DNA of 64,000 nucleotides from Flectonema sp. DT1601 (taxonomy: Eukaryota), in NCBI GenBank assembly GCA_964019425.1, contig OZ025806.1, positions 496,001-560,000 of the forward strand, given 5' to 3'. The position numbers were made by a program, and so were the translations under genes. The notes beneath the pieces were generated by a model, which was not told the origin of the DNA, did not search any database, and saw only the letters and a list, made by a program, of their open reading frames with translations. Positions 2,672 to 60,220 of this stretch are shown one piece after another. Positions within the stretch are counted from its first letter, which is position 1; every line of letters starts with the position of its first letter.

Positions 2672-4831
2672 TCACTGGATGTCCTCAAGGACGTCTTCTA
2701 GAACTGGATTGTCTTTATGAATGCTGTTGTTGTTTTGTCGTTGCAGTTTCGACCTCGCTGCTCTCGCACGACCATGACGTTTCCAAGATCCTATCTTTCT
2801 AGTAAGATTAAATGCATTTAGTTTATGAGGTGAATTATCACTCGATACGACCGCCTCATCTATCTGAATATTACATTCACCAATGATGACATGTGTACAG
2901 TTACCTTTGGGTGATTCGGTTGACTCACCACAAGAAGATTCAAGTGATTGACAGTAGAGTTGGTTATCAAGTTCTTTCATTCTATTTTCAATCTCTTCCT
3001 GAATAGCTCTGTAAAATTGACTGTTTTCATGTCTTCGTTGAATTGATAAGAAATCTTGTTTTGTTAGGACGAACAATTCGCTTGCAGTTACGGTTTTCGC
3101 AGCTGCTGTCCTCCTAGTGTCTCGCAGTATTGCTATTTCACCAAACCAAGATCCATCATGAAGAAGAGCAACTCGGTGATCAATTCCGTTTTTTCGTACG
3201 AAAATTTCAACAGTTCCGACCGACAAGAAAAACATTTCCCTCCCGGCCTCATCCGTTTCGATTATAGGAACATTCGCTTCCACAACATGCCGAATTAGTT
3301 TAGCCGCGAGTTCCAATAAAATAGGTTTCTCTGCTCCTCTAAACATCGGTACCTGAGAAATCATATTTAACCTCATAGCTAGTGTTATTCGACTTTGTAA
3401 ACTTGGTGGGAATGCTCGTAATATTTCAGTATGTTGCATACATGTATCACCGAATATTAGGGGGTACAATGCATACGCTTCTTTTTTAATCTCTTGAGGG
3501 ATTTCATAGCGATTGAGAAGTTGGAGAACTATGTTTCGAGTTTTCCTTTGTTTCTTACCAAGAACGTCTTTGGCCATGAAATAAACTGAAACATTACCAA
3601 CAAACCAAGCATACGAACCACTGCCTACTAACATTACGATCGTGGTGTAGATTCTGAAACTTGGAGTATCGTTGTAGGTTGAGAGGTCACCAAATCCAAC
3701 ACTCGAAGTAGTTTGAACCGCCCAGTAGATTGCTTCAATATAATAATCACTAGTTGATCCATCAGCTGACCGAAACAACATATAAATCACAGCAATAATA
3801 TGATGACTGATCACTATAAACAAAGCTGCAGACAATATTTCATAACGACGAGGGCTGTCTAACGGATTGGAAGATCTAAACATTGATGGTGATCGAAGAA
3901 TTTTCAACAACCGAAGCACTTGCGCGAGACGATACCCACGTAAAGACACTGTCGCTAATAATATAAAGTCAAATGGGACTATGGTTCCCAAATCGAAAGG
4001 AAACCATCCCCTTAAATATCTCTCTCTAACATAAGTAGTATCATTGTCGTACAATTGAAATCCATTTAGTTGAGCAGTTTTAAACCTCGAAGCGATGAAG
4101 ACAATGGAAAAAACAGTTGCGAGTATCAAAAAAGACAACTCACCCACACTTGGATCGTCATCCCAAACTCCAGTACACATTATACACGAGATTAACATGA
4201 ATTCACCACATATAAGAAGTTGGTATATAACTTCAATACTTGTAATGCACGGATGTTCGGGTAACAACAATTCCTGATGGGCAGTGATGGCTGATGCTTC
4301 AAATGCAGGTCGCGTACTATCGTCTGAGTCAGGACGAGAATGTTGTGTCAACACTTCTAACGGAGATATTGGAGAAGAAACATCATTTTCTAGAGGTAGT
4401 GGTGGGAGTGGTGGTAGAGCTCCACTCTGCTCAGAACATTCCGAATCAGCTCGGAATGAAGTGATAGTTTCCAACGGACTACCTCCAAATGCGCAGACAT
4501 TTGCTTTTGTTTTTGTACGTTTTTTGTTTTTCGTTTTCGATTTCCAAGCATCAGCATTTGGTCCCCACCTCCCCCATGAACCACTCACTGATGATATCGA
4601 GTCATCAATAACTATTTCATCATGTTTTACAATCGAGTTTATTTTCGAATCGATTCCAAATAACACCTTTTCAAATGTTTGCATTCTTTCAACCATAGCC
4701 ATTAATAATAAATTACTATTAGTAGCACTCTGTTGATCATTCCATGATTGCTCTGTTTTATGAGGCTTCACAAATGAAGTGGGTAACTCTCCTAATGACT
4801 CCTCCGATGAACCTTCTGTGTTGACAGACAT
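2672..4831 (-). CDS. Six-TM K+ channel with cyclic-nucleotide-binding domain (KCNH/CNG/HCN superfamily)
   Basis: S4 RGYRLAQVLRLLKILR, pore YWAVQTTSSVGFGD, CNBD GSWFGEIAILRDTRRTA. Likely start MSVNTE at 4831, just after a pyrimidine tract and CAG. The ORF-track extension to 5050 is translated homopolymer. Confidence 0.9.
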   Translation of the reverse strand: MSVNTEGSSEESLGELPTSFVKPHKTEQSWNDQQSATNSNLLLMAMVERMQTFEKVLFGIDSKINSIVKHDEIVIDDSISSVSGSWGRWGPNADAWKSKTKNKKRTKTKANVCAFGGSPLETITSFRADSECSEQSGALPPLPPLPLENDVSSPISPLEVLTQHSRPDSDDSTRPAFEASAITAHQELLLPEHPCITSIEVIYQLLICGEFMLISCIMCTGVWDDDPSVGELSFLILATVFSIVFIASRFKTAQLNGFQLYDNDTTYVRERYLRGWFPFDLGTIVPFDFILLATVSLRGYRLAQVLRLLKILRSPSMFRSSNPLDSPRRYEILSAALFIVISHHIIAVIYMLFRSADGSTSDYYIEAIYWAVQTTSSVGFGDLSTYNDTPSFRIYTTIVMLVGSGSYAWFVGNVSVYFMAKDVLGKKQRKTRNIVLQLLNRYEIPQEIKKEAYALYPLIFGDTCMQHTEILRAFPPSLQSRITLAMRLNMISQVPMFRGAEKPILLELAAKLIRHVVEANVPIIETDEAGREMFFLSVGTVEIFVRKNGIDHRVALLHDGSWFGEIAILRDTRRTAAAKTVTASELFVLTKQDFLSIQRRHENSQFYRAIQEEIENRMKELDNQLYCQSLESSCGESTESPKGNCTHVIIGECNIQIDEAVVSSDNSPHKLNAFNLTRKIGSWKRHGRARAARSKLQRQNNNSIHKDNPVLEDVLEDIQ

Positions 4832-12507: not shown

Positions 12508-18241
<5,734 letters not shown>

Positions 18242-23170: not shown

Positions 23171-24406
23171 TTAAACTTTTGCCTCTGCTAACATTTTTGT
23201 TAAGTCTGTTGTGGATAACCCTTCCCCATCATCGTCACCAAAAGCACCGATGATTTGATCCAACATAGCGGACATTTCCTTAGAGCTTTCCATTACCCTC
23301 TTGGGATCAGTTAGTAATTTTCGATGTTCTTCAGCAAGTTCTTTCCAGTTAGTTCCGTGACAAATACTATTAATTAGTCTTGGAACAGGCTCGATGACGA
23401 GTGAAGATCTGAATTTCTCTTCTGTTGAATGCGGTGGTTCCAAAAATGACAGTTCATCCAGGGCTCTTTGAACTTCCTCGAGGGGTGGAATCTGGTCTAC
23501 TAAAATTTCATTTAAAAATTTTCTGATTTTTAAAATCTGTTCCTTCCTCCACATGTTGTAGTTATATTTTTCACGACAGACAGGGGATGTTAGTAACATA
23601 TGCATTATGAACCAAGTGTGAGCTTCGTATTCACAGACGACATAAATATCAGTTTTTTCAACAGTTTTCCATTCCTTTGTTTTAAATTTCGACATCCCAT
23701 TTGCGTCTCTTCGCAGCCAAACTCTATTGTCCAGCAGCGTTGCTAGTCCTACGGGCATGTCATTCTTTTTTAAGATGCTGTTGACAGCAGACATAGGTAG
23801 GATTTTTATTTTATCAATGATATACCAAAGAACTGATATTGAAGTCATGCATATAGTGAATTCTTGTCGTCTTTCAGATTGTAGCCGATGGTCTATTTTA
23901 TTTGCTTCTTCGACATCTGTTGGTAATACAGGCCAATAGTCATCATCTGCGTGAGAGTTTAGTGTAATGATATTACGCCATAAGTAATCGAGGACTTCAA
24001 GTAGGTCCTCATCTGCGCGACAAACTCCTTCTTCAGTCCAAAAAATTAACTCCAACAGATTAACCAGAATCCCTTCATAGTATAATAGCGAATACATTGC
24101 TGCCGGGTTCTTTGTTGCGACATCGTCTCTTATGATTGGGTAAATCTTTTTTCTCCATTGTTCAATGACTAGTAGTTCGTGAATCAACACGGATACTTTA
24201 TCGTGATTTAAGATACCCTCAACAACATAATCACTAACTTGACTAGCAGTATTGTGATGTGCTTGACAGTTTAATTTCTCTACTTGAGATCTCTGAGCCT
24301 GCCATCCTTTTTCTCCAACTTCTGAAATTGTAAATGGCTGCAATCCTTTTATTATAGCCTCTGTTTCTGGTTGCATTAATATTTGAGAACCTGTAAATCC
24401 TTCCAT
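23171..24406 (-). CDS. ZMYND10: ZMYND10/BLU-like axonemal dynein assembly factor, no MYND finger visible
   Basis: W..Q...VEKLN.QAH, KV..LIHELLVIE.WR, LYYEG.LVNLLE, LNE.LVDQIPPL..VQR.L..L match the conserved N-terminal/central region of ZMYND10. Start at MEGFTG (24406). Confidence 0.8.
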   Translation of the reverse strand: MEGFTGSQILMQPETEAIIKGLQPFTISEVGEKGWQAQRSQVEKLNCQAHHNTASQVSDYVVEGILNHDKVSVLIHELLVIEQWRKKIYPIIRDDVATKNPAAMYSLLYYEGILVNLLELIFWTEEGVCRADEDLLEVLDYLWRNIITLNSHADDDYWPVLPTDVEEANKIDHRLQSERRQEFTICMTSISVLWYIIDKIKILPMSAVNSILKKNDMPVGLATLLDNRVWLRRDANGMSKFKTKEWKTVEKTDIYVVCEYEAHTWFIMHMLLTSPVCREKYNYNMWRKEQILKIRKFLNEILVDQIPPLEEVQRALDELSFLEPPHSTEEKFRSSLVIEPVPRLINSICHGTNWKELAEEHRKLLTDPKRVMESSKEMSAMLDQIIGAFGDDDGEGLSTTDLTKMLAEAKV

Positions 24407-45501: not shown

Positions 45502-48500
45502 TCAATACTTCCTTCCTAAAACCCTCAGAGACTGGTAATAACTTACATAAGTTGATATAAGTACTTTATCAATACGAGGAACCGGAATTGGTTTTCCTAT
45601 TTTCAAAAGATCAGTTTGAGCCTGTGAAGCCACAACGGAAGAACTATTCTCAAACACATCATCAGAAATATTAAAAAGAGGAGACACCACTCTTTGAAGT
45701 GCCTGAGAAGTTGAATCAGAACAGAAATGATCGTGAAGACGAGACTTCCACGTCGATAACTCAATGCGATGCATGAGTAAGTGATGTTTTGAATGCATGT
45801 GTGAAATCACTGAGTTCCACTGCATACTTCCTCCAGATAAATGATACACTTTACCACTTGAGACTGCCTCACTTGACAATCCAACGATTATCTTTGAACA
45901 ATAATCAACAGGAAGTAAACTGCACGGTGTTTGTAAATCAGGTGCAGATTTCATAAGCAAAAAAGCCAACAAGAGTCTTTCACTGATGTTGTTTACGTTA
46001 GTCACACCTGTTAAAGCTGATCCGGTGACGTTGTTGAGACGGAATATAGTCACATCGATTCCGAGTGAGTTCATCTTTTTAAGAAGATTCTCACAAACGA
46101 AATCTGACATTGCTCCACCAGTCGTAATACCGCTCGGAAGTGATGACCCGTTGCAATTTGAATTGATTATTACTTCTGGATGTGATGATGGAATTACACC
46201 ACCAGCAAGATGAGTCGCAAATACTATTTTCTTCTTCCGCAGTTGAACAACCAGAGATAAAATAGTTTTCATTCCTTCAATACTTAACAATCTCAGTAGT
46301 GAATAAGATAGAGAGCTGTAATTGAAGGTATTACCCACCAAGTGATAGACAATAGAAACGTCAGAGCATAATTGATCCCAATGGCACCGTGAGATTCCCA
46401 AATGAGGATGTTCTGCGTTACCTAACAATATGACGATAGTACCAACATTGATTAATTTATTTAACAGGTGGCTGTCCAGTTGGTATTTTGAAAATGATTT
46501 TCGAATTCGATCAACTCCGTCTGAGACACTCCTCGCTCTGACAAGACAATAAATTATAACGTCTCTCTGAGTTGAATCTTTTCTTTTCATTTCCACCATC
46601 AAATCATTCAGGACAAAGGAAGCAATAAAACCAGTAGCTCCAGTTAATAAAACATCACTGCGTCTCTCGCTGTTTAATTCATCTGAGTAGTTCTCAACAA
46701 ACGAGTCAATATTCAGATCGTTTTTCATCATTTCGATCTCTTTCAGAGAAGGCTTGCTTCCTTCTTCTTTATTGGTTTGTTTTGAAAATCTCTCTACGTA
46801 CGATGCCAGTCTTTTCGGTGTTGGATTTTCTAATAAATTAATAAGCTGTAAAGGAACACTGAGTGACAGCATTGAATTTATCATTTTAATGACCCTGGTC
46901 GCCGTTGTCATGTCACCTCCGCAATAGAATAAAGTGTCACCGCAACTCACGGATATTGACACATCGTTTCCAAGTGATTCAGCAAACGCAAGGCAAATAA
47001 TGTGTTCAACATAGGAACGTGGTGGGATGAATTTGATTCTAAAATTCGAAGGGTTGCTTTGAGAAGTGATCAGTCGCAAGGATCTCCTCACATCTGATAT
47101 TGGTAAATGCTCCAAAACTACAATCCTATCAATCTGTATGTGAGGTGATATAACTCCGACTTGACTTAACCAAATTTCATTTATGATGTCTTTGTTAACC
47201 AACGAGTTTAATGATTTTTGAACATAGCAAATTAAGCGTCTCTCACCAACTGAATCATCCTTTGTTATGACGATAGCTTTTGAGATTATGTCCTTATTGA
47301 GATGTAATATAATTCTTTGAAGATGAGCGCAGTCGATATGATGACCTCTTCTCTTAGCAGTTAGAGCCTCTTGTGATCCAATCTGGATAATTTTATTATT
47401 TATTATCTGTGCGAGGATTCCTGTTCTGTATACTCTACCGTTCGACCATTCAGAAAATTTACTCCGAGTTGAACTTTTTTGTTTTTTGTGTATTGAATTC
47501 CATTTAAAGTGTTTTGACTTTATTAGAAGCTCACCTGGAACAGAAAAATCAGTTTGCTGTTTGAATTTATTAATTGTCAGAAGTGAGTACAGTGGTGTTG
47601 CCTCACCTAGTATGAATTTAACACCGTCACGATCCTCAATTTGATTTGAATTTTCTTTTTTATTAATTCCAATGTTAGCAGCGACCACACCAAAACACTC
47701 CGGTAAAACAAACAAAGACGATACAACAGTTTTTTTTAACTTTTCAATACTCAAATTAGGTGCCGTTGAAACCAACAAATGACGAACCCCCAACTCATCC
47801 GCAATATCTACCAATCCAGAAGAATACCGTCCGGCTATGACAGTGATGTTAGAAGTAGATATAATAAAGTTATACGATTCTTGTAATGTTTTTTGAGTAT
47901 TTGATGATAATAGTCGAGCATCGGAACAGCAAATTGATCCGCCAATTAATAAAAACGGAAGTACATTAGAAACAAACAGAATTAGAGAATTTGAATGACC
48001 CACTGCGACCTCAGACAAAAACTGATTGATGAATCCAAGACAGTCAGTTTGTTCAATTTGAAAAGTACTGCTGAACCACTCACAATGTTCTCTGATCACA
48101 TCTTCGGTGTGATAAATTGAAGTCCCGTCATAACAATTAATTGAGAAGACATTATTTGATGAAAATTCATTTTTATCAAAATTATTTTTTAAATGTTCTT
48201 CAACACCAATAATCATATCCCGATTAATTAAAAGATGATCATCTGACTTAGTAGTCCAATGCTTGTGAGATTCAGTGCCTGACTGAACTACGAATGTCTT
48301 TCCTGATAAGATTGCTGCTATGACGCATAATAAATGGGAAACGTCAAACCTTGCGGCAGATGAATTTTCTATACACACTGATGTCTTGTCAGAATTCTGT
48401 ATTATTGACGCTAACGATATGGCTTCATCAAAAAACGATTTAAACGTCACTGTTGTGAAATTTCCTGTTCGATGATCAATTTCTTTACAGATAATTCGAT

Positions 48501-51500
48501 CAGAGAACTTTTCTGCTGAAGATAGAAGTAGATGACGGAGTTGAATATTGTTGTTTAATTCGTGTGAGGGTGAGACTGGTTTATTGGGTTCTGAGTTACC
48601 AACAACACGAACGTCAGCGATAATTTGACTTCTTATTACAGACAGATCTCTCAACCAAAAACAAACATGTTGTAGAAGAATTATTGAATTTTGATTACTC
48701 ACTTTCGATGAATCGTATCTTAGTTTCATGACTGACTTTGAGTTATGTCGTTCCAACGTGAATGAGAAATTTTGTAACGATCCGACTGGCATGTTGGTAT
48801 CAACAATATTGTGATCATCATATAAATCTCTGTAGCTGACTACAATGTCATAGAGAGGATTGGAGAGCAGAGTTCTATGTCGATGAACTGTTTTTATAAT
48901 TTCACTCTCTGGAACAAAATTATAACCAACAGACTCAGAGTACTGCCGCGACAGAGTTGACAACAACCCTGCGAGACTGTCTTTACCTTGAAATGGAAAT
49001 TTTATTCTCATTGGAAGAATTTTGGTATAATTCCCCAGAGTATTGAAATCGTTATACGACTCTCTTAAATTATCCCACAACCCAACCATCACATCACACT
49101 GTGATGTATATAAGTGAAATATCGATGACACCACAGCAGTTAAAACAACTGACGGAATAGTACTGAACTCAGATGATATTTTTATCAAATTCTCAACTAC
49201 GCAATCATTTACAACAATCGATTCAGTGTTGTAATTTCTGATTTGTTGATCTTCACGTATCCAGTCCCATGGAAAAGATAGATGGCTCGATGACCCAAAC
49301 AGCAATCCCGTCCAATAGCTGATCGCATTATCACCAATAGGACTTTCTAAAATAGATTTTTGACTAAACGTGAAATTAGTATATTTACAAACACTCTCAC
49401 TGATGCTGTCATTCGATTTCAGTAACGAGATTATCGAACTCAGAACAGTTCTGAGACCCTCATCATCAGAGAAGACAGGGTGACATGCTAATATTAAATA
49501 TTTCTTATCCAAAACAGATGAAGTAATTAAGTCTGTCCCATGCAACACAGTATCACTGTAGAACTTTAAAGTTGTGATGTATTCCTTAACTGAGGTCTGG
49601 ATATCCTCATCGGTGGTGGTGGCTGAGGTAACAACTATTTCTCTTTTCAGATTCACATCATCGCTTACTTGTAAAAACCCATCACAAAATTCAACTTGAA
49701 GAAGTTCCTGTGTTGATATGATGTCGTTCATTACCGATTGCACTTTTAAGACGTCCAGTTCGAATCCGACATCAGAACAGATGTAAACTACGCGACTCTC
49801 AAATTTGGATGTGAATTCAGAAGATAAATACTCCATTTGAATGTGAGAAAGTGGATTTCGATCAGAAAATGACGAGACAGGTATTTCGACCAACGGTGAA
49901 GTTTTTCTAATCAAATCAACGTGAGATGCTATTTTACGAAGAGTCGAAGCGGAAAGTAAATCCCTCGGAGAGAACTTGACTTTAAAAAAAGAAGCAACGT
50001 GACAAGCAATCCTCCTCAAGGATACAGAATCACATCCAATCCCCAACACAGGACTTTGTATACTACTGAGATTACTTGACCAGAATCTACTCAGAAGTAA
50101 TAATTTAATTTCAGTGAGACTCTCTGGCTGAAACCTAACCACCAACAGCGGATTCAAGATCGATTGTGAAGAAACTATGTCACTTGAATATTGAAAAGTT
50201 TCTTCTTCTGATTTAAACTTTTTAAAAAACATATCAACATCAGATGGTTGACATATCTCATCATCGTCGTGAACTGGAATATGCGGAAGTATATTACACA
50301 CAGCATTGGTTAAGGTTGGTTTCCTTGATGATTTCGTTAAAATAAAAAAATCAGGAACAACACAACCCACATGATGATCTTTAGAAAACTCTCGCAGTTC
50401 AATTCCCGTTGCGGATTCCGTTAGTGAAACGATTGCAACCAGATACTCAAATGATTTTCCGTTATTAACATGCGAGTGTTTCGTTACAGATGCAAAAATA
50501 ATTTTTGGATTTTGTTTCAAATTCCTTACAATGTCGCAAAGGTTAACCACAACACCTCTGTAGGTAATCATTTGTTTATTATTATCAGTTTGAGTGTGGT
50601 TAAAAATATATCCTTTTTGATTCCATGAACACGTCATATCACAACAGAATGATAGCAGATGATCATCTGTTGAATTTAAATAACAAAAATTTTGAGATTC
50701 AACATCAGAAACAGTTACGACACCCCCACCTGATAAAAACAATTGACCGGATGCGTACAAGGGAATCATCTCACCTGATGGCCCAACAATAGTGGCGGTA
50801 ATGCCTTCAGATGGTTTGCCTAAAGGGAGATTGTCAGTAGTCTTATTTTCAATCTCATTTAAGTACCGATGAACATCACATTGAAGGGCTGGTATTCCTG
50901 AACATTCGTATCCACTACAACTTGTTATTCTTTTGAAACAAATATTTTGATTTTTTGAAACCAGTTCACATATTTTACTACTCTCGTTCTGATCACAACT
51001 AAACCAAATTACAGAAACTGATTTCGGAATTGCGTCATTCTGATACAGATGGATCAGGTACCATGATGGAATAATAATATCAGTCGGACTGATGTCTTTA
51101 AAAATATCTATTTCCAAATTCCGATGATCATTTATACCGTTTTTGTATAACACTGAATCACATAGATAGAACCCACCTCCACTGGTGATACATCCGAAAA
51201 GCTCAAATGGTGTAATTGTCTGACCGATCAAAGCTAATTTAGTGCAGTTGTTCCAATTTAGTTCATCAACAGATATTTTTGTACAGTAATGGTGAAGGTC
51301 AGTGTTTGTGAATTTCTGATGAATAGAACCCGTAGATGGATTGATAGTAAAGAAAACTACGTCGGTGGCATCTCCTGTATCCTCTATGTGATCGACATTG
51401 TCAGTTATTTTTATTTTTTCAATATTTACAATACTTGTAACTGAATTGTTGTCATTTTCATCGAAGTCCTCGTCATCGACTAGGAGATAATTTATTTCTA

Positions 51501-54500
51501 GTTTTTCACAAATTTTAATTACTTCTTTGCGATCAAACAAATCCGTCCTCACTATTGAAAAGGAAATCCTCGACAAGAGGCAAGCGAATACCGTTTTCAC
51601 TATATCAACGGCACTGGTCATGTATATCACAGATTTCTTTCCAGGATTTTGGATTGTCGATAAGTAAGAAGAAATAGATGAGCTGCTGTCCATCAAACCA
51701 GAAATAGTAATTGGCTGAACAGACTTCACTCCTCGTGGGTAAATTACAACTGAGTCAGAATCTGTCACCAATCTTTGTATTAAAGCATTAGTAACAGTCC
51801 AATTGGTATTGGATGAAACATGTACTTGAGACCAATCCCTCAGTTTTAAAGTACTATTTTCATCAAGCAAAGATTCAGATCGCTGTAATATAAATCCAAC
51901 AGACGAATCGAATGAGAATTCTCTACTCTGAGAGGTAAATGAAATGAGTTGGGTGTACGAATCTAACAATGAAGAAACCTCTTCTACGGAGTACTTTTCA
52001 TTATCAAATGTGATTTGAATATTTAATTCTCCGTTGGTGCCTTCTGTCATACTGGTTGATAATGTGTATCCGTGTCGTGATCTGGAATGATAATTTTGTG
52101 TGATGTCGAGAGAGTTTAATTCAACATTCTTCATTCGTAAAGTTGAGTTTGGAAAATTCAAAAGATTTCTGGATAATTTTTGAGGTGTTTGGGTCAAGTC
52201 AACAAAACACTTTTCACAATCGGTTTCATCTTCTCTGAAATGTTGATCATAAAGTCCCTGCGATAAAGAATCAAACGTACTATTACAAAGTGCTCGAAAA
52301 CTAAGCGATCGAGAAGGTGTCACAACCACTGAGTGAGTACTTGAAAAACAACCAACCGTAGACCCAAACTCAACACGACATCTATTCGAAAATGGAAATG
52401 CCATTTTGACTTCGTCACTACTTTCAAAGACAGATATCACAATAATATAAAGTGTTAAAAACACACTTGTTCTTGTCACGGCACATTCTTTTGCTATTCC
52501 CTGAATCGACTTTACAGAATCAGAAGATATAATTTTATTTATTGATCGCATCGTTGATCTACTCAAAGATTTTTTACCAATCACACCAACTCCACTATTG
52601 AGTTTTGCGTGATCACCCGCCAAAAGCAACAGTCTTTTTTCATACTGTGTGTAACTCACATAAGGTAAAGCGTGTTGTGCTGAGGTTGATTTTGGACTGG
52701 TCAAAAGTGATGATTCAGCTTGAGTTGTATAACAACACTTTAAATCTCTCATAATGATGGCGACAGAGTAATCATCAGCACAGATTGGATGAGTTACGAG
52801 CTGGAATATCGTTGAGTTTTTGAAATGAAAAAGACGAATCCTTACAAGACAATCCTCACTAAGCTCAAATGGTATTGATGCTTCAGAAACTAACAGAGAC
52901 GATGCCTCTTCACTCTGACTGCAGATATCTTCACACTGCAATTCACTTATATTTAAACAAACAGAATCAGGTGTCGTGACTTTCTGATAAATCGATTGAT
53001 CTTTTCTCAAATGATACGTTGTTCTTAGCATTCCATGATTGCTAACAATTCTGTAAAGGCAATCAGCAAGTCTCTTTAAATCCACAACACCAAGTTGAAT
53101 AACCGCATGAATAAACTTATTTAAGTCACCAGGATGTCTCATGCTGCAGTGCCTATTGTATAACTCTGCTTGTGAGAGTGAGACAGCTGAAGGTTCACTT
53201 GCATATGGAGAAATTGGTATTGGTCTTTTCCCCTTTAGTTGAGCTATATTTACTAAAAGTGATATGCCGCTAACAGACGCATGTTCGAGTACTTCTGAAA
53301 TGGAAATAACACAATTCAACTTTGAGCATATCCTTCCAACTATCGTCACCGCTGTTAAAAAGCTACCTCCGTAATAAAAAATAGATTTTTCAACATCAAT
53401 TACCGTCAAGTTCAATTCCGTTAAACAGATACTTTTAACGCTGTCGAGTACCATTGGCGGGGGCGGTTGAATTCTTTCAATCATAACATCTCGTGACTTT
53501 CCAGTTGGAGAGCTACTTGGCGAAGATGAAGCGCTTGAGGCATTTTCAATGTTCTGCAACAGAAACCTACTCCGATCCGAGCTTATAATTTTTATTTTTT
53601 CTACTTCTCCAGCAATATAGGACGCAACCTTTTTCCTATCGACATCACCTGTTGGTGTTGTAGGTATTTTTTTTATTGTGAACAAGAAGCTGGGGATTAA
53701 TTCTGAAGTCACTAACTTTGTTATTTCATCTCTGATAAACTCCACTGAAACTGTTGTGTGTCGTCTAGTCTTGAGAACAACCGCCAAGTGATGCTCGTGT
53801 TGGATCGCCACGCAGTCTTCAACAGCAGAAATACTTCTCAGCAACACTTCAAAAGCATGAAACGAAATCCGACTTGAAAATGAAAATATTTGCATCTGAG
53901 AAGGATTCTTTCGTAAGTATTGAATATGGTTTTCATCATTAATGGTAACGACATCTTCACATGATGTGATGTGTTCACTACTCTGATTATGACAAAGGCA
54001 TAATGGAGAATGTTGTCGACTACCCGATTTCGGATCTTTATTTCCATCTTTGAAAGCTGACTTAACACCAGTCCAGTCAGGTAGCAATGCATCAACGTCA
54101 TGCAATGAAAAGTTTGGTACAATTTGGGCAATCGGTGCTGCAGTTTCACTACACAAACAACTACCCGCGCAGTGTAGTGTACCCTCAACTCCCTTTGGAA
54201 CTTGTTGCATGTCAGTATCAAGTATTTTGCAGTAGTTTCCTGATATAGGTTGGCCGAGGGAAGCAATATCGCTCTCTCTCCATGTTTCACAGGCTCCTAA
54301 TAATTTAATACTGGAAACAATAGTTTGTTGACCTCCGTAGTAGTCTACGTACACTGAACTAAAAGGAGCATTTTGTAAAAACAAAACTATCGCTGGTGAC
54401 ATTCTCAATCCCTCTCCACAGATGATGATATCCCTGAGACTAGATGGTCTGCAGTTTAGTATTCTACTCACAGATGATAAGTCGCTCAGATAAGACGGCG

Positions 54501-57105
54501 ATACAAATATTCGTTCAATCCCAAAGTGAGAGATATAACTACCAAGAACAGCCGCATGAGACTCTACCTCCGTATCAACAACACATAAAGTACCTCCACT
54601 ATTAATGCACGACCATAACAGAAGTGGATAAACAGGAGATGTGATCTTTGCGTTGAATAATATCCGAACACCCGCAGCGATAGGTCTGTTTTCACACGAC
54701 CACAGCACTTCGTTTATTATACTACTGTGAGATACTATAGTTGCGTGATTGTAAATATTTTGACCACCTCCGAGATCGCTGTTTTGTAGAAATGAAGGAA
54801 ACGACATCAATGCTGCATGATCATCATCATCATCATCATCATCGCCATTATTATTTGAAAGGTTACAACCATCGTACGATGTGAGGAGATCACATATAAC
54901 TTCCTGGACTAAAACTTTAGTTTGATGATTATCACTACTATTCCACGATAGTAATTCATCAACGTGTGGATATCTTTTTGATGTGATAATTGAATGAAGT
55001 CTGCAGTTATTAATCACACTCTCAACACAAGAAAAAGGTGAATTCGAATCCAAAGGAATACACACGCCTCCCGCTTTTAATATTGCCACCAACGTCAGTG
55101 TACAGAAATAACCGTGTGGAATCAACACGGCTATCCTTTTTCCGGTTAAACTACCAACACCACTACCCGACAGCATTGATTGTGTGAATCGAGCGTATTG
55201 ATTTGCTTGTGAGTTTAATTTTTGAAAACTAACTGCGATTGACCCTTCAAGCAACGCAGTCACTTCAGGAAAATCTTCTGCAGCCTGTTCCAATAGTTGA
55301 GTTATTTTTGTGTAAGTGTTTTTGACGGGTATTTGATTGACTGATGACAATACTTTTTGTATAGATGCTGCCTGAGCAGTTGACACAACTTCCAGATTGT
55401 TTATTTCATTATTTTGTAAAACTTTAACGAGAGTGTGAATGTAGTTCTCGCACATGTCTTGTACCCTAACTGGATCGTAAGCCTCACAATAGACAAGTGA
55501 ACCTTGAAGTGTTCCGTTTTTTGTATAACAGACGAGCTGCATGTCGAATAAAGACTGAACGTAGTCATCAGCTAGCAGCTGACATGGTTTTGCACCGAAG
55601 CTTAGAGTGTTGTCAGAACTAGGTGTACTTAAAGTGAATGGCAACACTCGATACCCAATTTCACTATTTTCAAAAAATTGAAATCCAATTCTGCAAAAAC
55701 CACTTCCATCACCACCACCACCACAATTTGCAGATTCCTCTATCGATGTTATCTTTTGAAGTATTCTGTAGAATGGAGTGTGGTCATCAGTGGTCTTAAT
55801 GGAGCTCAAGATCGATTCCGCCGAAGAGCAAATTTCATCAAAAGTATCCCCAGAAGGAGAGATCGGAATGATATTATCAAACATTCCTAAACCTGGTCTT
55901 GTGTCAGGTGATTGCTGAAAACCAATAGAAACATCCCTTCGATTACAATACTTTCGCAACAACACTATCCAAGTTGCTAATAAAACTGTTTCTTGAGAAA
56001 TTTTATTTTCACCCGAAAACGAAGCAATCGTATCAACCAATTTTGATGAGAACACTATTGGAGAAGACTTACACTTGCTACCTCTTTTTGAAGGGTACGT
56101 TCCACTTGAATTCCGTTTACCAGGAAGTTTTAAAGAAGTAATATTGGTAAACACCGTAGACTTTGAAGGGTTTTTATTTTCAGCTGATAAAAATTTTTTC
56201 CAGTAAATTATATCCGAACAATGCGATGAGACGGTTTCCATATTTTGATGAGTTTTTGGACCAGCAATCCTAACACCGGTCCCGGTGTAGTCACCTTGAC
56301 AGAATACATCTCCAAACAGGTAGTCGTCTGGGGGGGAAGTGGTTTCTTGAGCTTCACATGTGCGGAGGGTTTCTTCGCATGAGTTTGATGTTTTCTTTTT
56401 TATGTTTAGGTTGAAATTTGTCGTATATCCATGACACAGATCTTTAATAAAGATGTCAACAGATTTCAAATCACATAAAACCGCGTGAAAGGTTATTATA
56501 ATCGAATCCGAATCATGGCCTCTAAAAATACCAACTCTGAATAGTGATTTTGATAAATCAGAAAATGGTATTGTCATCTGTTGAACAAGAGCATTCCAGG
56601 ATGACTTTTGATCATCAGAGATTGTAATATCGAAGTTAAAAGACCCAACAGAGTGTTCCACGAGCATCATATTATCGACGTCAATACCAAGTCTAAGTAT
56701 TGGATGGTGATGTGATAAGCTTATCACAATCTGTTTAAGTCTAGGAATATCAATTCTACTTCCTAAAGCAGCTTTCCAACACAAAACTTGAGATGAAGCT
56801 GCCAGCTGTTCAACCACAAACTGCTGCATGCTACTGAGTAATAATTTATTTTCATTTTCCTTGTCATTATTTCCAATTGTTATTTCCGAAGCATTCGATT
56901 TCTTTCTCAGTGGAGCGACAGATATTTGTACAGAGCAATCAACACAAGTATTATCTGGATGCCTCTTTGCGATTATTTTCATATCACTGGAACTACACCC
57001 TCGACAAATCGTACGAAGGCAGCTTCTACACCAATGCCGCCTGGTGATCAAACTGAAGTCTTTCTGACATATACAACATTTTTGTTGACGACGATCGACA
57101 GGCAT
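45502..57105 (-). CDS. FYVE-finger-fused trimodular NRPS-like protein, FYVE-(C-A-T)3-R, catalytically degenerate
   Basis: 3867-aa intronless ORF. N-terminal C..C…FSLITRRHWCRSC…IC..C…C..C. C-domain relics FHAVLCD, THPICAD, CHPVFSD. A-domain relics KAGGVCIPLD, GQPISG, GELLI, YRTG. Carrier motifs GGSFL, GCDSV, GGDMT. Terminal SDR VLLTGATGFIA…YCLVRA. Confidence 0.9.
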   Translation of the reverse strand: MPVDRRQQKCCICQKDFSLITRRHWCRSCLRTICRGCSSSDMKIIAKRHPDNTCVDCSVQISVAPLRKKSNASEITIGNNDKENENKLLLSSMQQFVVEQLAASSQVLCWKAALGSRIDIPRLKQIVISLSHHHPILRLGIDVDNMMLVEHSVGSFNFDITISDDQKSSWNALVQQMTIPFSDLSKSLFRVGIFRGHDSDSIIITFHAVLCDLKSVDIFIKDLCHGYTTNFNLNIKKKTSNSCEETLRTCEAQETTSPPDDYLFGDVFCQGDYTGTGVRIAGPKTHQNMETVSSHCSDIIYWKKFLSAENKNPSKSTVFTNITSLKLPGKRNSSGTYPSKRGSKCKSSPIVFSSKLVDTIASFSGENKISQETVLLATWIVLLRKYCNRRDVSIGFQQSPDTRPGLGMFDNIIPISPSGDTFDEICSSAESILSSIKTTDDHTPFYRILQKITSIEESANCGGGGDGSGFCRIGFQFFENSEIGYRVLPFTLSTPSSDNTLSFGAKPCQLLADDYVQSLFDMQLVCYTKNGTLQGSLVYCEAYDPVRVQDMCENYIHTLVKVLQNNEINNLEVVSTAQAASIQKVLSSVNQIPVKNTYTKITQLLEQAAEDFPEVTALLEGSIAVSFQKLNSQANQYARFTQSMLSGSGVGSLTGKRIAVLIPHGYFCTLTLVAILKAGGVCIPLDSNSPFSCVESVINNCRLHSIITSKRYPHVDELLSWNSSDNHQTKVLVQEVICDLLTSYDGCNLSNNNGDDDDDDDDHAALMSFPSFLQNSDLGGGQNIYNHATIVSHSSIINEVLWSCENRPIAAGVRILFNAKITSPVYPLLLWSCINSGGTLCVVDTEVESHAAVLGSYISHFGIERIFVSPSYLSDLSSVSRILNCRPSSLRDIIICGEGLRMSPAIVLFLQNAPFSSVYVDYYGGQQTIVSSIKLLGACETWRESDIASLGQPISGNYCKILDTDMQQVPKGVEGTLHCAGSCLCSETAAPIAQIVPNFSLHDVDALLPDWTGVKSAFKDGNKDPKSGSRQHSPLCLCHNQSSEHITSCEDVVTINDENHIQYLRKNPSQMQIFSFSSRISFHAFEVLLRSISAVEDCVAIQHEHHLAVVLKTRRHTTVSVEFIRDEITKLVTSELIPSFLFTIKKIPTTPTGDVDRKKVASYIAGEVEKIKIISSDRSRFLLQNIENASSASSSPSSSPTGKSRDVMIERIQPPPPMVLDSVKSICLTELNLTVIDVEKSIFYYGGSFLTAVTIVGRICSKLNCVISISEVLEHASVSGISLLVNIAQLKGKRPIPISPYASEPSAVSLSQAELYNRHCSMRHPGDLNKFIHAVIQLGVVDLKRLADCLYRIVSNHGMLRTTYHLRKDQSIYQKVTTPDSVCLNISELQCEDICSQSEEASSLLVSEASIPFELSEDCLVRIRLFHFKNSTIFQLVTHPICADDYSVAIIMRDLKCCYTTQAESSLLTSPKSTSAQHALPYVSYTQYEKRLLLLAGDHAKLNSGVGVIGKKSLSRSTMRSINKIISSDSVKSIQGIAKECAVTRTSVFLTLYIIVISVFESSDEVKMAFPFSNRCRVEFGSTVGCFSSTHSVVVTPSRSLSFRALCNSTFDSLSQGLYDQHFREDETDCEKCFVDLTQTPQKLSRNLLNFPNSTLRMKNVELNSLDITQNYHSRSRHGYTLSTSMTEGTNGELNIQITFDNEKYSVEEVSSLLDSYTQLISFTSQSREFSFDSSVGFILQRSESLLDENSTLKLRDWSQVHVSSNTNWTVTNALIQRLVTDSDSVVIYPRGVKSVQPITISGLMDSSSSISSYLSTIQNPGKKSVIYMTSAVDIVKTVFACLLSRISFSIVRTDLFDRKEVIKICEKLEINYLLVDDEDFDENDNNSVTSIVNIEKIKITDNVDHIEDTGDATDVVFFTINPSTGSIHQKFTNTDLHHYCTKISVDELNWNNCTKLALIGQTITPFELFGCITSGGGFYLCDSVLYKNGINDHRNLEIDIFKDISPTDIIIPSWYLIHLYQNDAIPKSVSVIWFSCDQNESSKICELVSKNQNICFKRITSCSGYECSGIPALQCDVHRYLNEIENKTTDNLPLGKPSEGITATIVGPSGEMIPLYASGQLFLSGGGVVTVSDVESQNFCYLNSTDDHLLSFCCDMTCSWNQKGYIFNHTQTDNNKQMITYRGVVVNLCDIVRNLKQNPKIIFASVTKHSHVNNGKSFEYLVAIVSLTESATGIELREFSKDHHVGCVVPDFFILTKSSRKPTLTNAVCNILPHIPVHDDDEICQPSDVDMFFKKFKSEEETFQYSSDIVSSQSILNPLLVVRFQPESLTEIKLLLLSRFWSSNLSSIQSPVLGIGCDSVSLRRIACHVASFFKVKFSPRDLLSASTLRKIASHVDLIRKTSPLVEIPVSSFSDRNPLSHIQMEYLSSEFTSKFESRVVYICSDVGFELDVLKVQSVMNDIISTQELLQVEFCDGFLQVSDDVNLKREIVVTSATTTDEDIQTSVKEYITTLKFYSDTVLHGTDLITSSVLDKKYLILACHPVFSDDEGLRTVLSSIISLLKSNDSISESVCKYTNFTFSQKSILESPIGDNAISYWTGLLFGSSSHLSFPWDWIREDQQIRNYNTESIVVNDCVVENLIKISSEFSTIPSVVLTAVVSSIFHLYTSQCDVMVGLWDNLRESYNDFNTLGNYTKILPMRIKFPFQGKDSLAGLLSTLSRQYSESVGYNFVPESEIIKTVHRHRTLLSNPLYDIVVSYRDLYDDHNIVDTNMPVGSLQNFSFTLERHNSKSVMKLRYDSSKVSNQNSIILLQHVCFWLRDLSVIRSQIIADVRVVGNSEPNKPVSPSHELNNNIQLRHLLLSSAEKFSDRIICKEIDHRTGNFTTVTFKSFFDEAISLASIIQNSDKTSVCIENSSAARFDVSHLLCVIAAILSGKTFVVQSGTESHKHWTTKSDDHLLINRDMIIGVEEHLKNNFDKNEFSSNNVFSINCYDGTSIYHTEDVIREHCEWFSSTFQIEQTDCLGFINQFLSEVAVGHSNSLILFVSNVLPFLLIGGSICCSDARLLSSNTQKTLQESYNFIISTSNITVIAGRYSSGLVDIADELGVRHLLVSTAPNLSIEKLKKTVVSSLFVLPECFGVVAANIGINKKENSNQIEDRDGVKFILGEATPLYSLLTINKFKQQTDFSVPGELLIKSKHFKWNSIHKKQKSSTRSKFSEWSNGRVYRTGILAQIINNKIIQIGSQEALTAKRRGHHIDCAHLQRIILHLNKDIISKAIVITKDDSVGERRLICYVQKSLNSLVNKDIINEIWLSQVGVISPHIQIDRIVVLEHLPISDVRRSLRLITSQSNPSNFRIKFIPPRSYVEHIICLAFAESLGNDVSISVSCGDTLFYCGGDMTTATRVIKMINSMLSLSVPLQLINLLENPTPKRLASYVERFSKQTNKEEGSKPSLKEIEMMKNDLNIDSFVENYSDELNSERRSDVLLTGATGFIASFVLNDLMVEMKRKDSTQRDVIIYCLVRARSVSDGVDRIRKSFSKYQLDSHLLNKLINVGTIVILLGNAEHPHLGISRCHWDQLCSDVSIVYHLVGNTFNYSSLSYSLLRLLSIEGMKTILSLVVQLRKKKIVFATHLAGGVIPSSHPEVIINSNCNGSSLPSGITTGGAMSDFVCENLLKKMNSLGIDVTIFRLNNVTGSALTGVTNVNNISERLLLAFLLMKSAPDLQTPCSLLPVDYCSKIIVGLSSEAVSSGKVYHLSGGSMQWNSVISHMHSKHHLLMHRIELSTWKSRLHDHFCSDSTSQALQRVVSPLFNISDDVFENSSSVVASQAQTDLLKIGKPIPVPRIDKVLISTYVSYYQSLRVLGRKY

Positions 57106-57622
57106 TTCTAGTGAAGCAAATTAGTTAAGGATTAGAGGGATGACAATTCTGAAAGGTTAATAAGTTTCTACAGTTTGTTCTGACTGATGTATTGTAATAA
57201 AATAGTGTAGCCGACTGAGGAGGGGGTGATGATGATTTTAATGTGAATAAATAAAATGAAGAAAGAAAAGAAAACAAATGACAGATTACGAAAAGAAATA
57301 ATATTTTCTTCTTCTGATAACTGAAGCAGGTGAATCAGAGAGAGAGAAAAGACTTTGTGATGTAACGATGGTATAAAATATAAGTTTGTTTGTTTTTTTT
57401 GATATTTTTTTTTTCCTCAGCAGCTGAATAGAATCTCCATCAGAGTTTTCCTCAGCCTCGTCTTTCGGATCCCAACAAGTTTACTTTGCTTCAAATCCTT
57501 TTCAAATAAATCGGATTTGTTATGAGAAGGATGACATGCGATGTGAATCTTACATCAGGTAAATGCTTTGAAGAATTTACTAATTTTGTTTTCTTATAAC
57601 CATTAACCTAATTCATTCATGA

Positions 57623-60220
57623 CTAACCAAATGAAGGACTAGCGCTCATCGTCATTCTTCCAGATCCTCTCTTTCCAGCAAGAGGATTTAAATCCAACGG
57701 CATTGGACGACCATAGTTACCTAACTTACGACGTAAGTGTTTCTTCTCTTGTGGTTTCATGGGTTTGTAAAGCATAGAAGAACGAACACCATTTCCAATA
57801 TACTTTCTGTTAGCACCCATCGTACTCTTAAGTAACCTTGCTGGTGATGACTGACGCCTATTAAATTTACCCGTACCACCAGTACTTGCTTGGTGAGCGA
57901 AGGAGTACTGAAACTGTAAGCGATTCAGAATTCTTTTGGGGATCTGGGCGTGTTTTGATCTGCCCATGATGCCGCTGTTTTTTTTTTTTTTTTTGTAATG
58001 ATTAATGAAAACAGAAAACAATAACAAAAAAAAAACAAGTTAAAATTAATTCATACTTAGGATCTGGTCTCTTTTGAAGCGATCTCGTAGCAGTAACTCT
58101 TTGTAACTTTAGAAGTTCTTTTTTCGATGCAAATCCTCTCCATTGAGCAACGTGCCATTTTCTGTCTAAAGTTTCTTGCCTCTGCTTCCACCATTTTTCT
58201 AACGTAGGTTTTTGAAGCTCCGCATCCTGACCGATATTTTCCAACTCTTTTCTCTTCGCAAGACGACTTTCTAAGAGTCTGCAAAACTGTCTCTCTATGG
58301 AATTGCTTTTCTGTTTTTTTTTTTTTTTTTTTGAATTATTATTTGCTATTTTAGTTTGACGACGGATACAAATTATAAAAAAACAAGAAAACACACCACA
58401 ACTAAACTCTGCACCATTCCACGTCGACCCATTCTCCCAGTACGACCTGCACGTAGAAGGTACTCAGCAGGGTATTTTGGAAGATCAAAATTGATAACCT
58501 GATCGACAGGGAAATCTAAACCTCTAGAGGCTATGTCTGTTGTGATTAGAATGTTGCATTCTCCGCTTGCCCATTTTTCAAATTCAGAAGTACGAGCATT
58601 ATGAGAATTAGAACCAATAGTATTATGCATCATTGACACTCTGTAACCATCACGAGTCAATTGCCTAGCTACACCGATACTTTGGGCTTTACTTTGGAAG
58701 AATATAATAACACGAGACCCTCGTAATGGACTTCTCTGTGGACATAATGGAGGAAGACCTGTGAAAGGACCAGCCGTAGCTTGTAAATGTCCCCAAGTCA
58801 TGACTGGTGGTTGTGGTAATACGGGAACCATACAATCATTCGTTTGATTCACAATCGGAACTATTGATTGCTCGCCATCATAGTCATCCTCAACTCCTGG
58901 GAGGATAAGTGAAGGTGGAGCTGGTAACGCTTTCGGAGCAGCAACATCTTCTGAATAATCTTGTTTATAAAATTGTCTTCCTTCAGTGTTCAGAAGTCTT
59001 CTATAAAGGGGTTCCCCGACCTCTTCACTTCCACCCCGCCATTCTTTTGATGCGACGAAGGACCCTTTTTGCAATGGTCCATATTTACCAGATTCAAAGG
59101 TTATCGCATCTGGAAACCAGAAATTCATTTTATTATGCAAATCTTCCTTCTGGAATTTTGGATCCGGACGATTACCATACGTCCCTAACAGACCTATTAG
59201 GGTTGAGTATTTATCTTTATTTGGTATTATGAGGAAATTGTGTGAAGTGTTCAGAGGTGATACATGAAATCCATTCGGATCAACAATAGTGTTAACGTGA
59301 GGGATTAAATTATTTACACGCGACTCGTAACTCTGAGTCACAGCTGCGGATGCTAATAAAAATTGAACTTTATGCCTACCAAGGTACGAGTCTCTCTCAA
59401 ATTGTTTTTCAAGAAGAGGTATTAAATTAGAGTATAAGGATTCTGAATCGGTTTCTTTGGCTTTACTGTAGTGAGCACCTCCGAGGAGGAGGTCAGCCTC
59501 GTCGATCGCAAAATATTTAACATCAATGGGAATAACGTATCCCCTCTCACAAGCAAGTCTGTATGATGATGGAGTGCCTATAATGACGTCGAACTCACCT
59601 TTTTGAACGTAGTAACGATTTCCGTACAACTCTCGGACTTCGAATCCGGTTTCTCGACCAAATTTCGAAGCGACGCTCCAAAGTTGGTGAACAAGTTCAT
59701 TAGTTGGAGCCAACACAACAAACCTTGGTCGATTCTTTCTGAGTGTTACTCCTGCAGCTCTGTCTTTCATCATCATATTAAAGACTGGGGTCATCATTGC
59801 TATTGTTTTACCTGTACCAGTTGCAGCACAAAGTCTTGTTGATTTACCTTCCAAAGCAACAGGTATTGATAGTTGTTGAATTGCAGATGGGGTTTCAACT
59901 TCCATTTCTTTTAACGCGACCATTACTTGAGGATGTAGTCCCATTCTCTCGAAAGACCTTACAGCATCTGGTTTAATACGTCCAGTCCTCGCTCTAACCG
60001 GCATTGAATGCTGCATTTCCATACTCCTCACAAGATGTCGTTTTCTCTCACTTCCATTATTTCTAAATATTTCCGGTTCTGGAACTTTTCCAAAATGCGA
60101 AAACGGTGTTGGAACTTTCGCAAAAGCATCTTTTATATTCCTAAGTTTTTCTTGTTGTTTCTCTTTAACAGCGAGAGTTGAAATCCATCTCTTTGTCACT
60201 CGAGCTTGTATGGATATCAT
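57623..60220 (-). CDS. DEAD-box RNA helicase, probably mitochondrial, 3 exons, about 809 aa
   Basis: Exons 60220-58397, 58310-58057, 57974-57623. Motifs: Q motif PSAIQ, ATGTGKT, PTNEL, DEAD, SAA, SRGLD, RAGRTGR. Presequence-like N-terminus. Confidence 0.9.

Follow-up and report, generated by a model that had tools for sequence, protein, structure and literature searches.

A FYVE finger fused in frame to a degenerate three-module NRPS line in Flectonema sp. DT1601, best read as a conserved pseudo-NRPS

The window, a 64,000-nucleotide stretch of Flectonema sp. DT1601, carries on its minus strand a single-exon open reading frame of 11.6 kb whose 3,867-residue translation (P0001) has no stop other than the terminal one, and the remaining five frames across it hold 192-382 stops apiece. 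Pfam together with custom NRPS profiles gives the domain order FYVE-(C-A-T)x3-R, with condensation (C), adenylation (A), carrier (T) and terminal reductase (R) domains. The features, all on the minus strand, are as follows.

45502..57105, minus: FYVE-(C-A-T)x3-R gene for P0001, 3,867 aa, best read as a pseudo-NRPS (single-exon ORF, Pfam, profiles)
56923..57096, minus: variant FYVE zinc finger, aa 4-61; eight Cys and RRHWCR, but neither the WxxD Trp nor the RVC Arg
55396..56838, minus: C1, aa ~90-570; HAVLCDL, catalytic second His gone, likewise in the intact homologue
53611..55308, minus: A1, aa ~600-1165; retains the A7 Asp (Asp1051) but not the P-loop, A5 Glu or A10 Lys
53236..53463, minus: T1, aa ~1215-1290; Phe1249 at the attachment Ser position
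51901..53178, minus: C2, aa ~1310-1735; HPICADD, catalytic His gone, first His and Asp kept
50296..51798, minus: A2, aa ~1770-2270; strongly degenerate
49906..50133, minus: T2, aa ~2325-2400; Ser2360 kept, absent from the Flectonema neradi copy
48616..49878, minus: C3, aa ~2410-2830; HPVFSDD, catalytic His gone
47071..48543, minus: A3, aa ~2855-3345; strongly degenerate
46786..47034, minus: T3, aa ~3358-3440; Met3399 at the attachment Ser position
45505..46659, minus: terminal reductase R, aa ~3483-3867; no Thr/Tyr/Lys triad, but a largely preserved glycine-rich loop and Arg3523
57108..57134, minus: candidate splice-leader acceptor; pyrimidine-rich tract and AG just 5' of the FYVE start codon

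Condensation, AMP-binding, PP-binding (three stretches) and NAD_binding_4 all pass their Pfam cut-offs in P0001. The custom profiles, built from NRPS matches (A, C and T from 150 sampled domains apiece, R from three sequences), recover three C, three A, three T and one R domain in the expected order, with T2 marginal (E 0.42); as the R profile draws on only three sequences, conclusions about R are taken from an alignment with MxaA and from comparison with the homologue P0144 (see below). With C, A and T in modular order and a release domain, P0001 is an NRPS by descent, and the in-frame fusion of a FYVE finger to C-A-T-C-A-T-C-A-T-R described in the first-pass annotation is genuine in this protist. 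The protein is 12.8% Ser and 3.6% Ala. GC content is flat along the gene and codon use follows that of 19 neighbouring ORFs (RSCU r = 0.95), an amelioration in keeping with the proposed domestication into the host. An assembly chimera is excluded by the uniform GC, the host-like codon use and the presence of collinear homologues in two species.

The finger (aa 4-61) scores 33.1 bits against the Pfam FYVE profile (cut-off 27.8, E 6e-8), and the PDB entries closest to it in sequence are FYVE domains, those of EEA1, RUFY1 and Vps27 (E 2e-6 to 1e-5). Its eight cysteines (10, 13, 26, 29, 34, 37, 54, 57) are invariant with Sulcionema P0144, and these zinc ligands together with the profile score place it among FYVE domains. 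The excerpted text of PMC3017826 defines the classic PI3P-binding FYVE by three motifs, WxxD, R(R/K)HHCR and R(V/I)C; it connects PI3P specificity with the Asp of WxxD and the second His, and headgroup binding with the RVC Arg. P0001 falls outside that definition, with MPVD, RRHWCR and NTC at the corresponding places; it has no WxxD Trp, second His or RVC Arg, and the variant nature of the motif had been correctly recognized from the outset. Parts of all three motifs are missing from both finger-bearing copies, P0001 and P0144, which have RRHWCR, LRTIC and HP-N-C in common, and of all domains the finger has been kept best between them (43% identity versus 20-34% elsewhere). These replacements suggest that its lipid preference may differ from that of classic FYVE domains, or that binding may be weak. 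The classic proteins EEA1 (1hyi/1joc), Vps27 (1vfy) and trypanosome TbFRP have the eight zinc-ligand Cys and the basic RRH-x-CR patch in common with P0001, but none of them is fused to an NRPS, and TbFRP keeps WxxD, R(R/K)HHCR and RVC, all three altered in P0001 (PMC3593210, in the portion available). A FYVE-only profile search over proteins of 120-2,000 aa scored none of its six candidates.

Pyrimidine tracts precede start codons in the window. Among 32 AG sites scanned near the P0001 start, four have a pyrimidine fraction of at least 0.68, and all four lie 5' of the FYVE ATG with no other ATG in between; AG sites inside the ORF reach at most 0.60. Since the best sites are upstream of the finger, the mRNA probably includes it. 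Trans-splicing that drops the finger was rejected on the same, indirect, ground (4/4 best sites 5' of the FYVE ATG).

A HMMER search with aa 1-1200 of P0001 was run against 1.84 billion cluster representatives. Two proteins stand apart among the best 150 matches, which were the ones examined: P0140 and P0144, both derived from diplonemid transcriptomes, so that transcription is evident for both. Representatives merge proteins more than 50% identical, so further family members may be hidden and a family of three is a lower bound. P0140, from Flectonema neradi, is collinear with P0001 and 38% identical over 3,568 columns; it is N-terminally truncated, beginning at P0001 residue 339, downstream of the FYVE position. 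P0144 (Sulcionema specki EukProt EP00755_P010126, unannotated) is about 22-25% identical to P0001 overall and carries the complete FYVE-(C-A-T)x3-R architecture on a single transcript of 12,062 nt, which joins finger and NRPS parts. It has in common with P0001 the architecture, the variant finger, the collinear domains and membership of the C1, A1 and R clades, and the best P0144 match of each domain of the P0001/P0140 pair is the same-numbered domain (7/7, weak for A2). In the available portions of PMC8061765 and PMC7049700, Flectonema and Sulcionema are placed among the diplonemids, Sulcionema near the base in an uncertain position. Word-based searches with the whole protein as query returned 224 matches from 6,853 candidates, the best 120 listed being canonical NRPS-type proteins at 18-26% identity, and 10 matches from 7,997 candidates among shorter proteins, again canonical NRPS-type only; they missed both P0140 and P0144, and such searches are thus insensitive here. 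Two JGI metagenome scans confirmed 0/100 and 0/600 pattern matches.

We scored 24 positions in each protein (the second His of C; A3 Lys, A5 Glu, A7 Asp, A8 Arg and A10 Lys of A; the carrier Ser; and Thr/Tyr/Lys of R), which we take, from established NRPS knowledge, to be the catalytic and attachment sites. P0144 keeps 23/24, the exception being the His of C1, a domain with no upstream donor, and its C2 and C3 read HHxxxDL. P0001, in contrast, keeps only two, Asp1051 of A1 and Ser2360 of T2, and P0140 keeps 2 of the 23 covered; the A1 Asp is the sole one common to both, with no carrier Ser shared. This degeneracy extends through all ten enzyme and carrier domains of P0001 and was overlooked in the first reading, and we are confident that P0001 is dead as a canonical NRPS. 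Rescue of catalysis by RNA editing is excluded, because the P0140 sequence comes from RNA and is dead nonetheless. With a matching dead copy in one diplonemid and an intact-looking version in another, P0001 has likely been repurposed, and the best reading is that it is a conserved pseudo-NRPS, a pseudoenzyme comprising a whole assembly line, derived from an intact-looking diplonemid FYVE-NRPS.

Trees were built in quick IQ-TREE runs (LG+G4, SH-aLRT only) with the six nearest reference domains per query module (48/1,173 A, 51/1,053 C, plus 11 R). C1 (SH-aLRT 99), A1 (98) and R (99) of the three proteins each group in a clade, and on this evidence these domains are of common descent. The dead A2/A3 and C2/C3 cluster together on long branches apart from their Sulcionema counterparts, and the trees thus do not resolve these modules; an odd residue make-up was flagged in the runs. 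Stems to the dead pair are long (C1 0.98, A1 2.08, R 1.19) relative to the terminal branches (0.39-0.69), and at 791 of 3,037 ungapped columns P0001 and P0140 agree with one another and differ from P0144, among them the replaced motifs of C3 and the R site. These shared changes and the long stem indicate that most of the catalytic loss predates the split of P0001 and P0140.

Each A domain of P0144 shares 37-42% identity with its best reference, and the three belong to separate groups of the unrooted tree. Recent internal duplication is excluded as the origin of the modules, as these live A domains are 30-33% identical among themselves and lie in separate groups. Their named neighbours are from Nostoc, Chloroflexota and Streptomyces, in a reference set not deliberately including fungal or other eukaryotic NRPSs, which agrees with a bacterial-type ancestry; the pattern fits acquisition of a ready-made bacterial line. 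In the history that we envisage, a bacterial-type three-module reductase NRPS would have entered the diplonemids and then gained the FYVE finger, and one copy lineage would have diverged fast, lost its chemistry and later been held by new constraints.

The same long stem followed by shorter branches would also fit divergence after a duplication, and P0001 could then be an inactive paralogue coexisting in one cell with a live FYVE-NRPS and pairing with it on the membrane, where it would position or regulate peptide-aldehyde output. The finger and domain order are those of intact Sulcionema P0144, and the 50% clustering of the library would mask any live copy at least 50% identical to P0144. Diplonemid transcriptomes have several NRPS-annotated proteins each: table S1B of PMC10161547, in the portion available, lists three NRPS orthogroups, OG0012259, OG0024071 and OG0026566, as diplonemid gains, giving no architecture and not identifying P0144, with counts per orthogroup of 2, 1 and 1 for Sulcionema (four in all), 1, 0 and 1 for Rhynchopus humris, 2, 1 and 0 for Hemistasia, 1, 0 and 0 in the column PhM-4, and 0 throughout for D. 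papillatum. Among the best 150 HMMER matches, however, there is no dead Sulcionema copy, no live Flectonema copy and no species with both forms, and we regard such pairing as unlikely, though it is the strongest competitor of the conserved pseudo-NRPS reading.

Loss in the C domains is selective: in the HHxxxDG motif of the five dead C domains (three in P0001, two in P0140) the second His is gone (0/3 in P0001, with Ala208, Pro1440 and Pro2543 in its place), and the first His and the Asp are kept. The A domains of P0001 retain 1/15 scored positions (P-loop A3, A5, A7, A8, A10), namely Asp1051, with Lys1066 where A1 would have the A8 Arg and, in A2, an Asp displaced by one column from A7; at 64 near-invariant columns (≥90% in references), A1, A2 and A3 keep 27, 22 and 19, against a reference median of 98% and minimum of 45%. 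The carrier Ser of GGxS is present in one of three T domains (Ser2360, within GCDSV). The R domain has 0/3 triad residues, its Tyr and Lys being replaced in the MxaA alignment, and Ala3495 stands for the third Gly of GxxGxxG. Partial or non-canonical chemistry, such as loading of a carrier in trans or an A1 or R site adapted to another reaction, could be imagined from Ser2360, Asp1051, most of the R nucleotide loop and an A1 pocket identical at 5/9 positions between the dead copies (F-I-C-Y-I in common, the pocket Asp lost). We consider this improbable, as the retained Ser lies in T2 of P0001 but in T1 of the Flectonema neradi protein, and neither protein has any A10 Lys, P-loop or R triad residue left.

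In neutral simulations on P0001 the first stop arrived after a median of 17 substitutions (2,000 runs), and with 10% of residues changed about 22 stops had accumulated (30 runs); about 60% of residues differ between P0001 and P0140, and neither frame is interrupted. Their identity is uneven beyond all 1,000 column shuffles, reaching 51% in the A1 core and 61% in the R C-terminal subdomain but 33% in the A3 core, and is highest at Gly/Pro (62%) and aromatics (50%). We therefore hold it very probable that P0001 is kept by selection. Fast divergence, the skewed Ser and Ala content, the odd residue make-up in the trees and the zero counts of D. papillatum in the part of S1B available would suit a functionless relic decaying under relaxed selection; yet an 11.6-kb frame has stayed open although its identity to a transcribed copy has fallen to 38%, dozens of stops would be expected under neutral change, and the conservation is structured by the A1 core, the R C-subdomain, Gly/Pro and aromatics, so that decay is a poor and rather remote explanation. 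An active endomembrane tripeptide synthetase with reductive release, the working enzyme of the first-pass annotation, would suit the full domain order and predicted folds, and indeed Sulcionema P0144, but for P0001 it is scarcely credible with 22/24 catalytic positions gone and NCBIfam scores below cut-off (adenylation 99.9 bits versus 317, thioester-reductase 148.7 versus 213). The conserved pseudoenzyme reading follows from loss before the split combined with retention of frame, fold and finger, since drift would soon stop the ORF. By the marks of a pseudoenzyme, the fold is kept, the residues are lost and the protein is conserved, with expression taken from the P0140 transcript and inactivity from sequence.

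AlphaFold models of P0001 have mean pLDDT 82 for T3-R and 66 for C1-A1 and match solved NRPS R and C-A structures; active NRPSs served as alignment rows, so the models lean to the NRPS fold. The FYVE region of the N-terminal model, at pLDDT <50 over residues 19-85, is evidence neither way. The A1 pocket code of P0144 is DVQFYCDTV, and most of its nearest references have DVQFIAHVV, which we take to be proline-type. The hydrophobic A1 pocket of the dead copies could still hold a ligand. Inactive NADP-sensing SDRs keep the nucleotide loop, as R of P0001 largely does.

On balance we favor P0001 as a non-enzymatic, membrane-tethered scaffold or regulator. The finger would bind an anionic lipid, not necessarily PI3P, and tether the protein to the endosome or food-vacuole membrane, where its body of ~430 kDa would supply binding surfaces. 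The A1 core and the R C-terminal subdomain would be the likeliest working sites, where binding without turnover may involve NADP(H), a small hydrophobic ligand or partner proteins; no peptide would be made. Intact P0144, in contrast, is expected from its domain content to release a tripeptide aldehyde or alcohol. Tripeptide aldehydes are a class that includes protease inhibitors. More tentatively, and with somewhat less than even confidence, the diplonemid FYVE-NRPS family may comprise an active food-vacuole tripeptide-aldehyde line together with P0001 as a membrane scaffold and ligand or redox sensor. P0144, with its variant of a proline-like A1 code, is a natural-product target in itself.

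Bacterial reductase-terminated and related NRPSs (MxaA R, 4u7w/4w4t; MxcG; AusA; TycB C-A-T, 9bfd) have the C-A-T...R order of P0001, with 19-26% identity and matching predicted folds; P0001 differs from them in its N-terminal FYVE, its degenerate motifs throughout and the lack of a biosynthetic cluster among the scanned neighbours. MxcG, AusA and TycB are the myxochelin, aureusimine and tyrocidine NRPSs, respectively. Inactive single NRPS domains include the X domain of glycopeptide NRPSs and the degenerate A domains of fungal siderophore NRPSs, and NmrA-type SDRs are likewise inactive, keeping the fold for a binding or recruiting role. All resemble P0001 in keeping a fold and losing catalytic residues; however, these are single domains in or beside an active system, whereas in P0001 the whole ten-domain line is degenerate.

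In the full-text literature, at a coverage without most subscription journals, we found no description of a FYVE-fused NRPS, the match obtained being on fungal LaeA, in agreement with the novelty initially proposed for the architecture, no relevant paper on a diplonemid NRPS or peptide secondary metabolite, and no description of a whole inactive or pseudoenzyme NRPS; searches on horizontal transfer of NRPSs in Euglenozoa matched algae, dinoflagellates and NAT genes only. Neither NRPS nor FYVE terms occur in the main text of the paper on the D. papillatum genome (PMC10161547), and term look-ups found no mention in the main text of PMC13615690, PMC12699882 or PMC2837644. If the reading is true, a ten-domain line that two organisms have kept although it is dead would stand out for its size among pseudoenzymes; as a megasynthetase recycled whole, it would show directly how a biosynthetic gene of foreign type can become cell machinery. 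The intact-looking Sulcionema protein points to natural-product synthesis on a compartment in abundant marine protists, and serves both as a matched control for P0001 and as a target for product discovery.

The surroundings of the gene are those of an ordinary eukaryotic locus. Twenty window ORFs were scanned with Pfam, of which nine are without a match; the others, all on the minus strand, are ordinary eukaryotic genes, the neighbours of P0001 including a SAR1-like GTPase, a DEAD-box helicase, a NIF phosphatase, a cNMP-gated channel, a RING protein and a carotenoid oxygenase. This gene order on one strand, the pyrimidine tracts before start codons and the nearest homologue would all fit a diplonemid. 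No peptide-cluster tailoring enzyme is present among the 20, and no tRNA gene in the 64-kb window. Directly upstream of the NRPS lies a small basic ORF of 114 aa (57626-57967, minus) without a Pfam match. The carotenoid oxygenase (RPE65 family; 30811-32245) occupies two overlapping frames and is probably intron-interrupted. A 411-aa ORF without a Pfam match (23171-24406, minus) resembles, as we judge it, the cilia protein ZMYND10 minus its C-terminal finger. Two pairs of look-alike membrane-protein ORFs, 12508-14394/19858-21603 (with a weak Lipase_3 match in the first) and 17135-18241/21709-22743, suggest tandem duplication of an intron-split gene. Directly after ORF 17135-18241, a perfect trinucleotide repeat of ~2.5 kb with extreme skew (14524-17154) is open on the minus strand as poly-Asn, and may be either a real microsatellite or assembly inflation.
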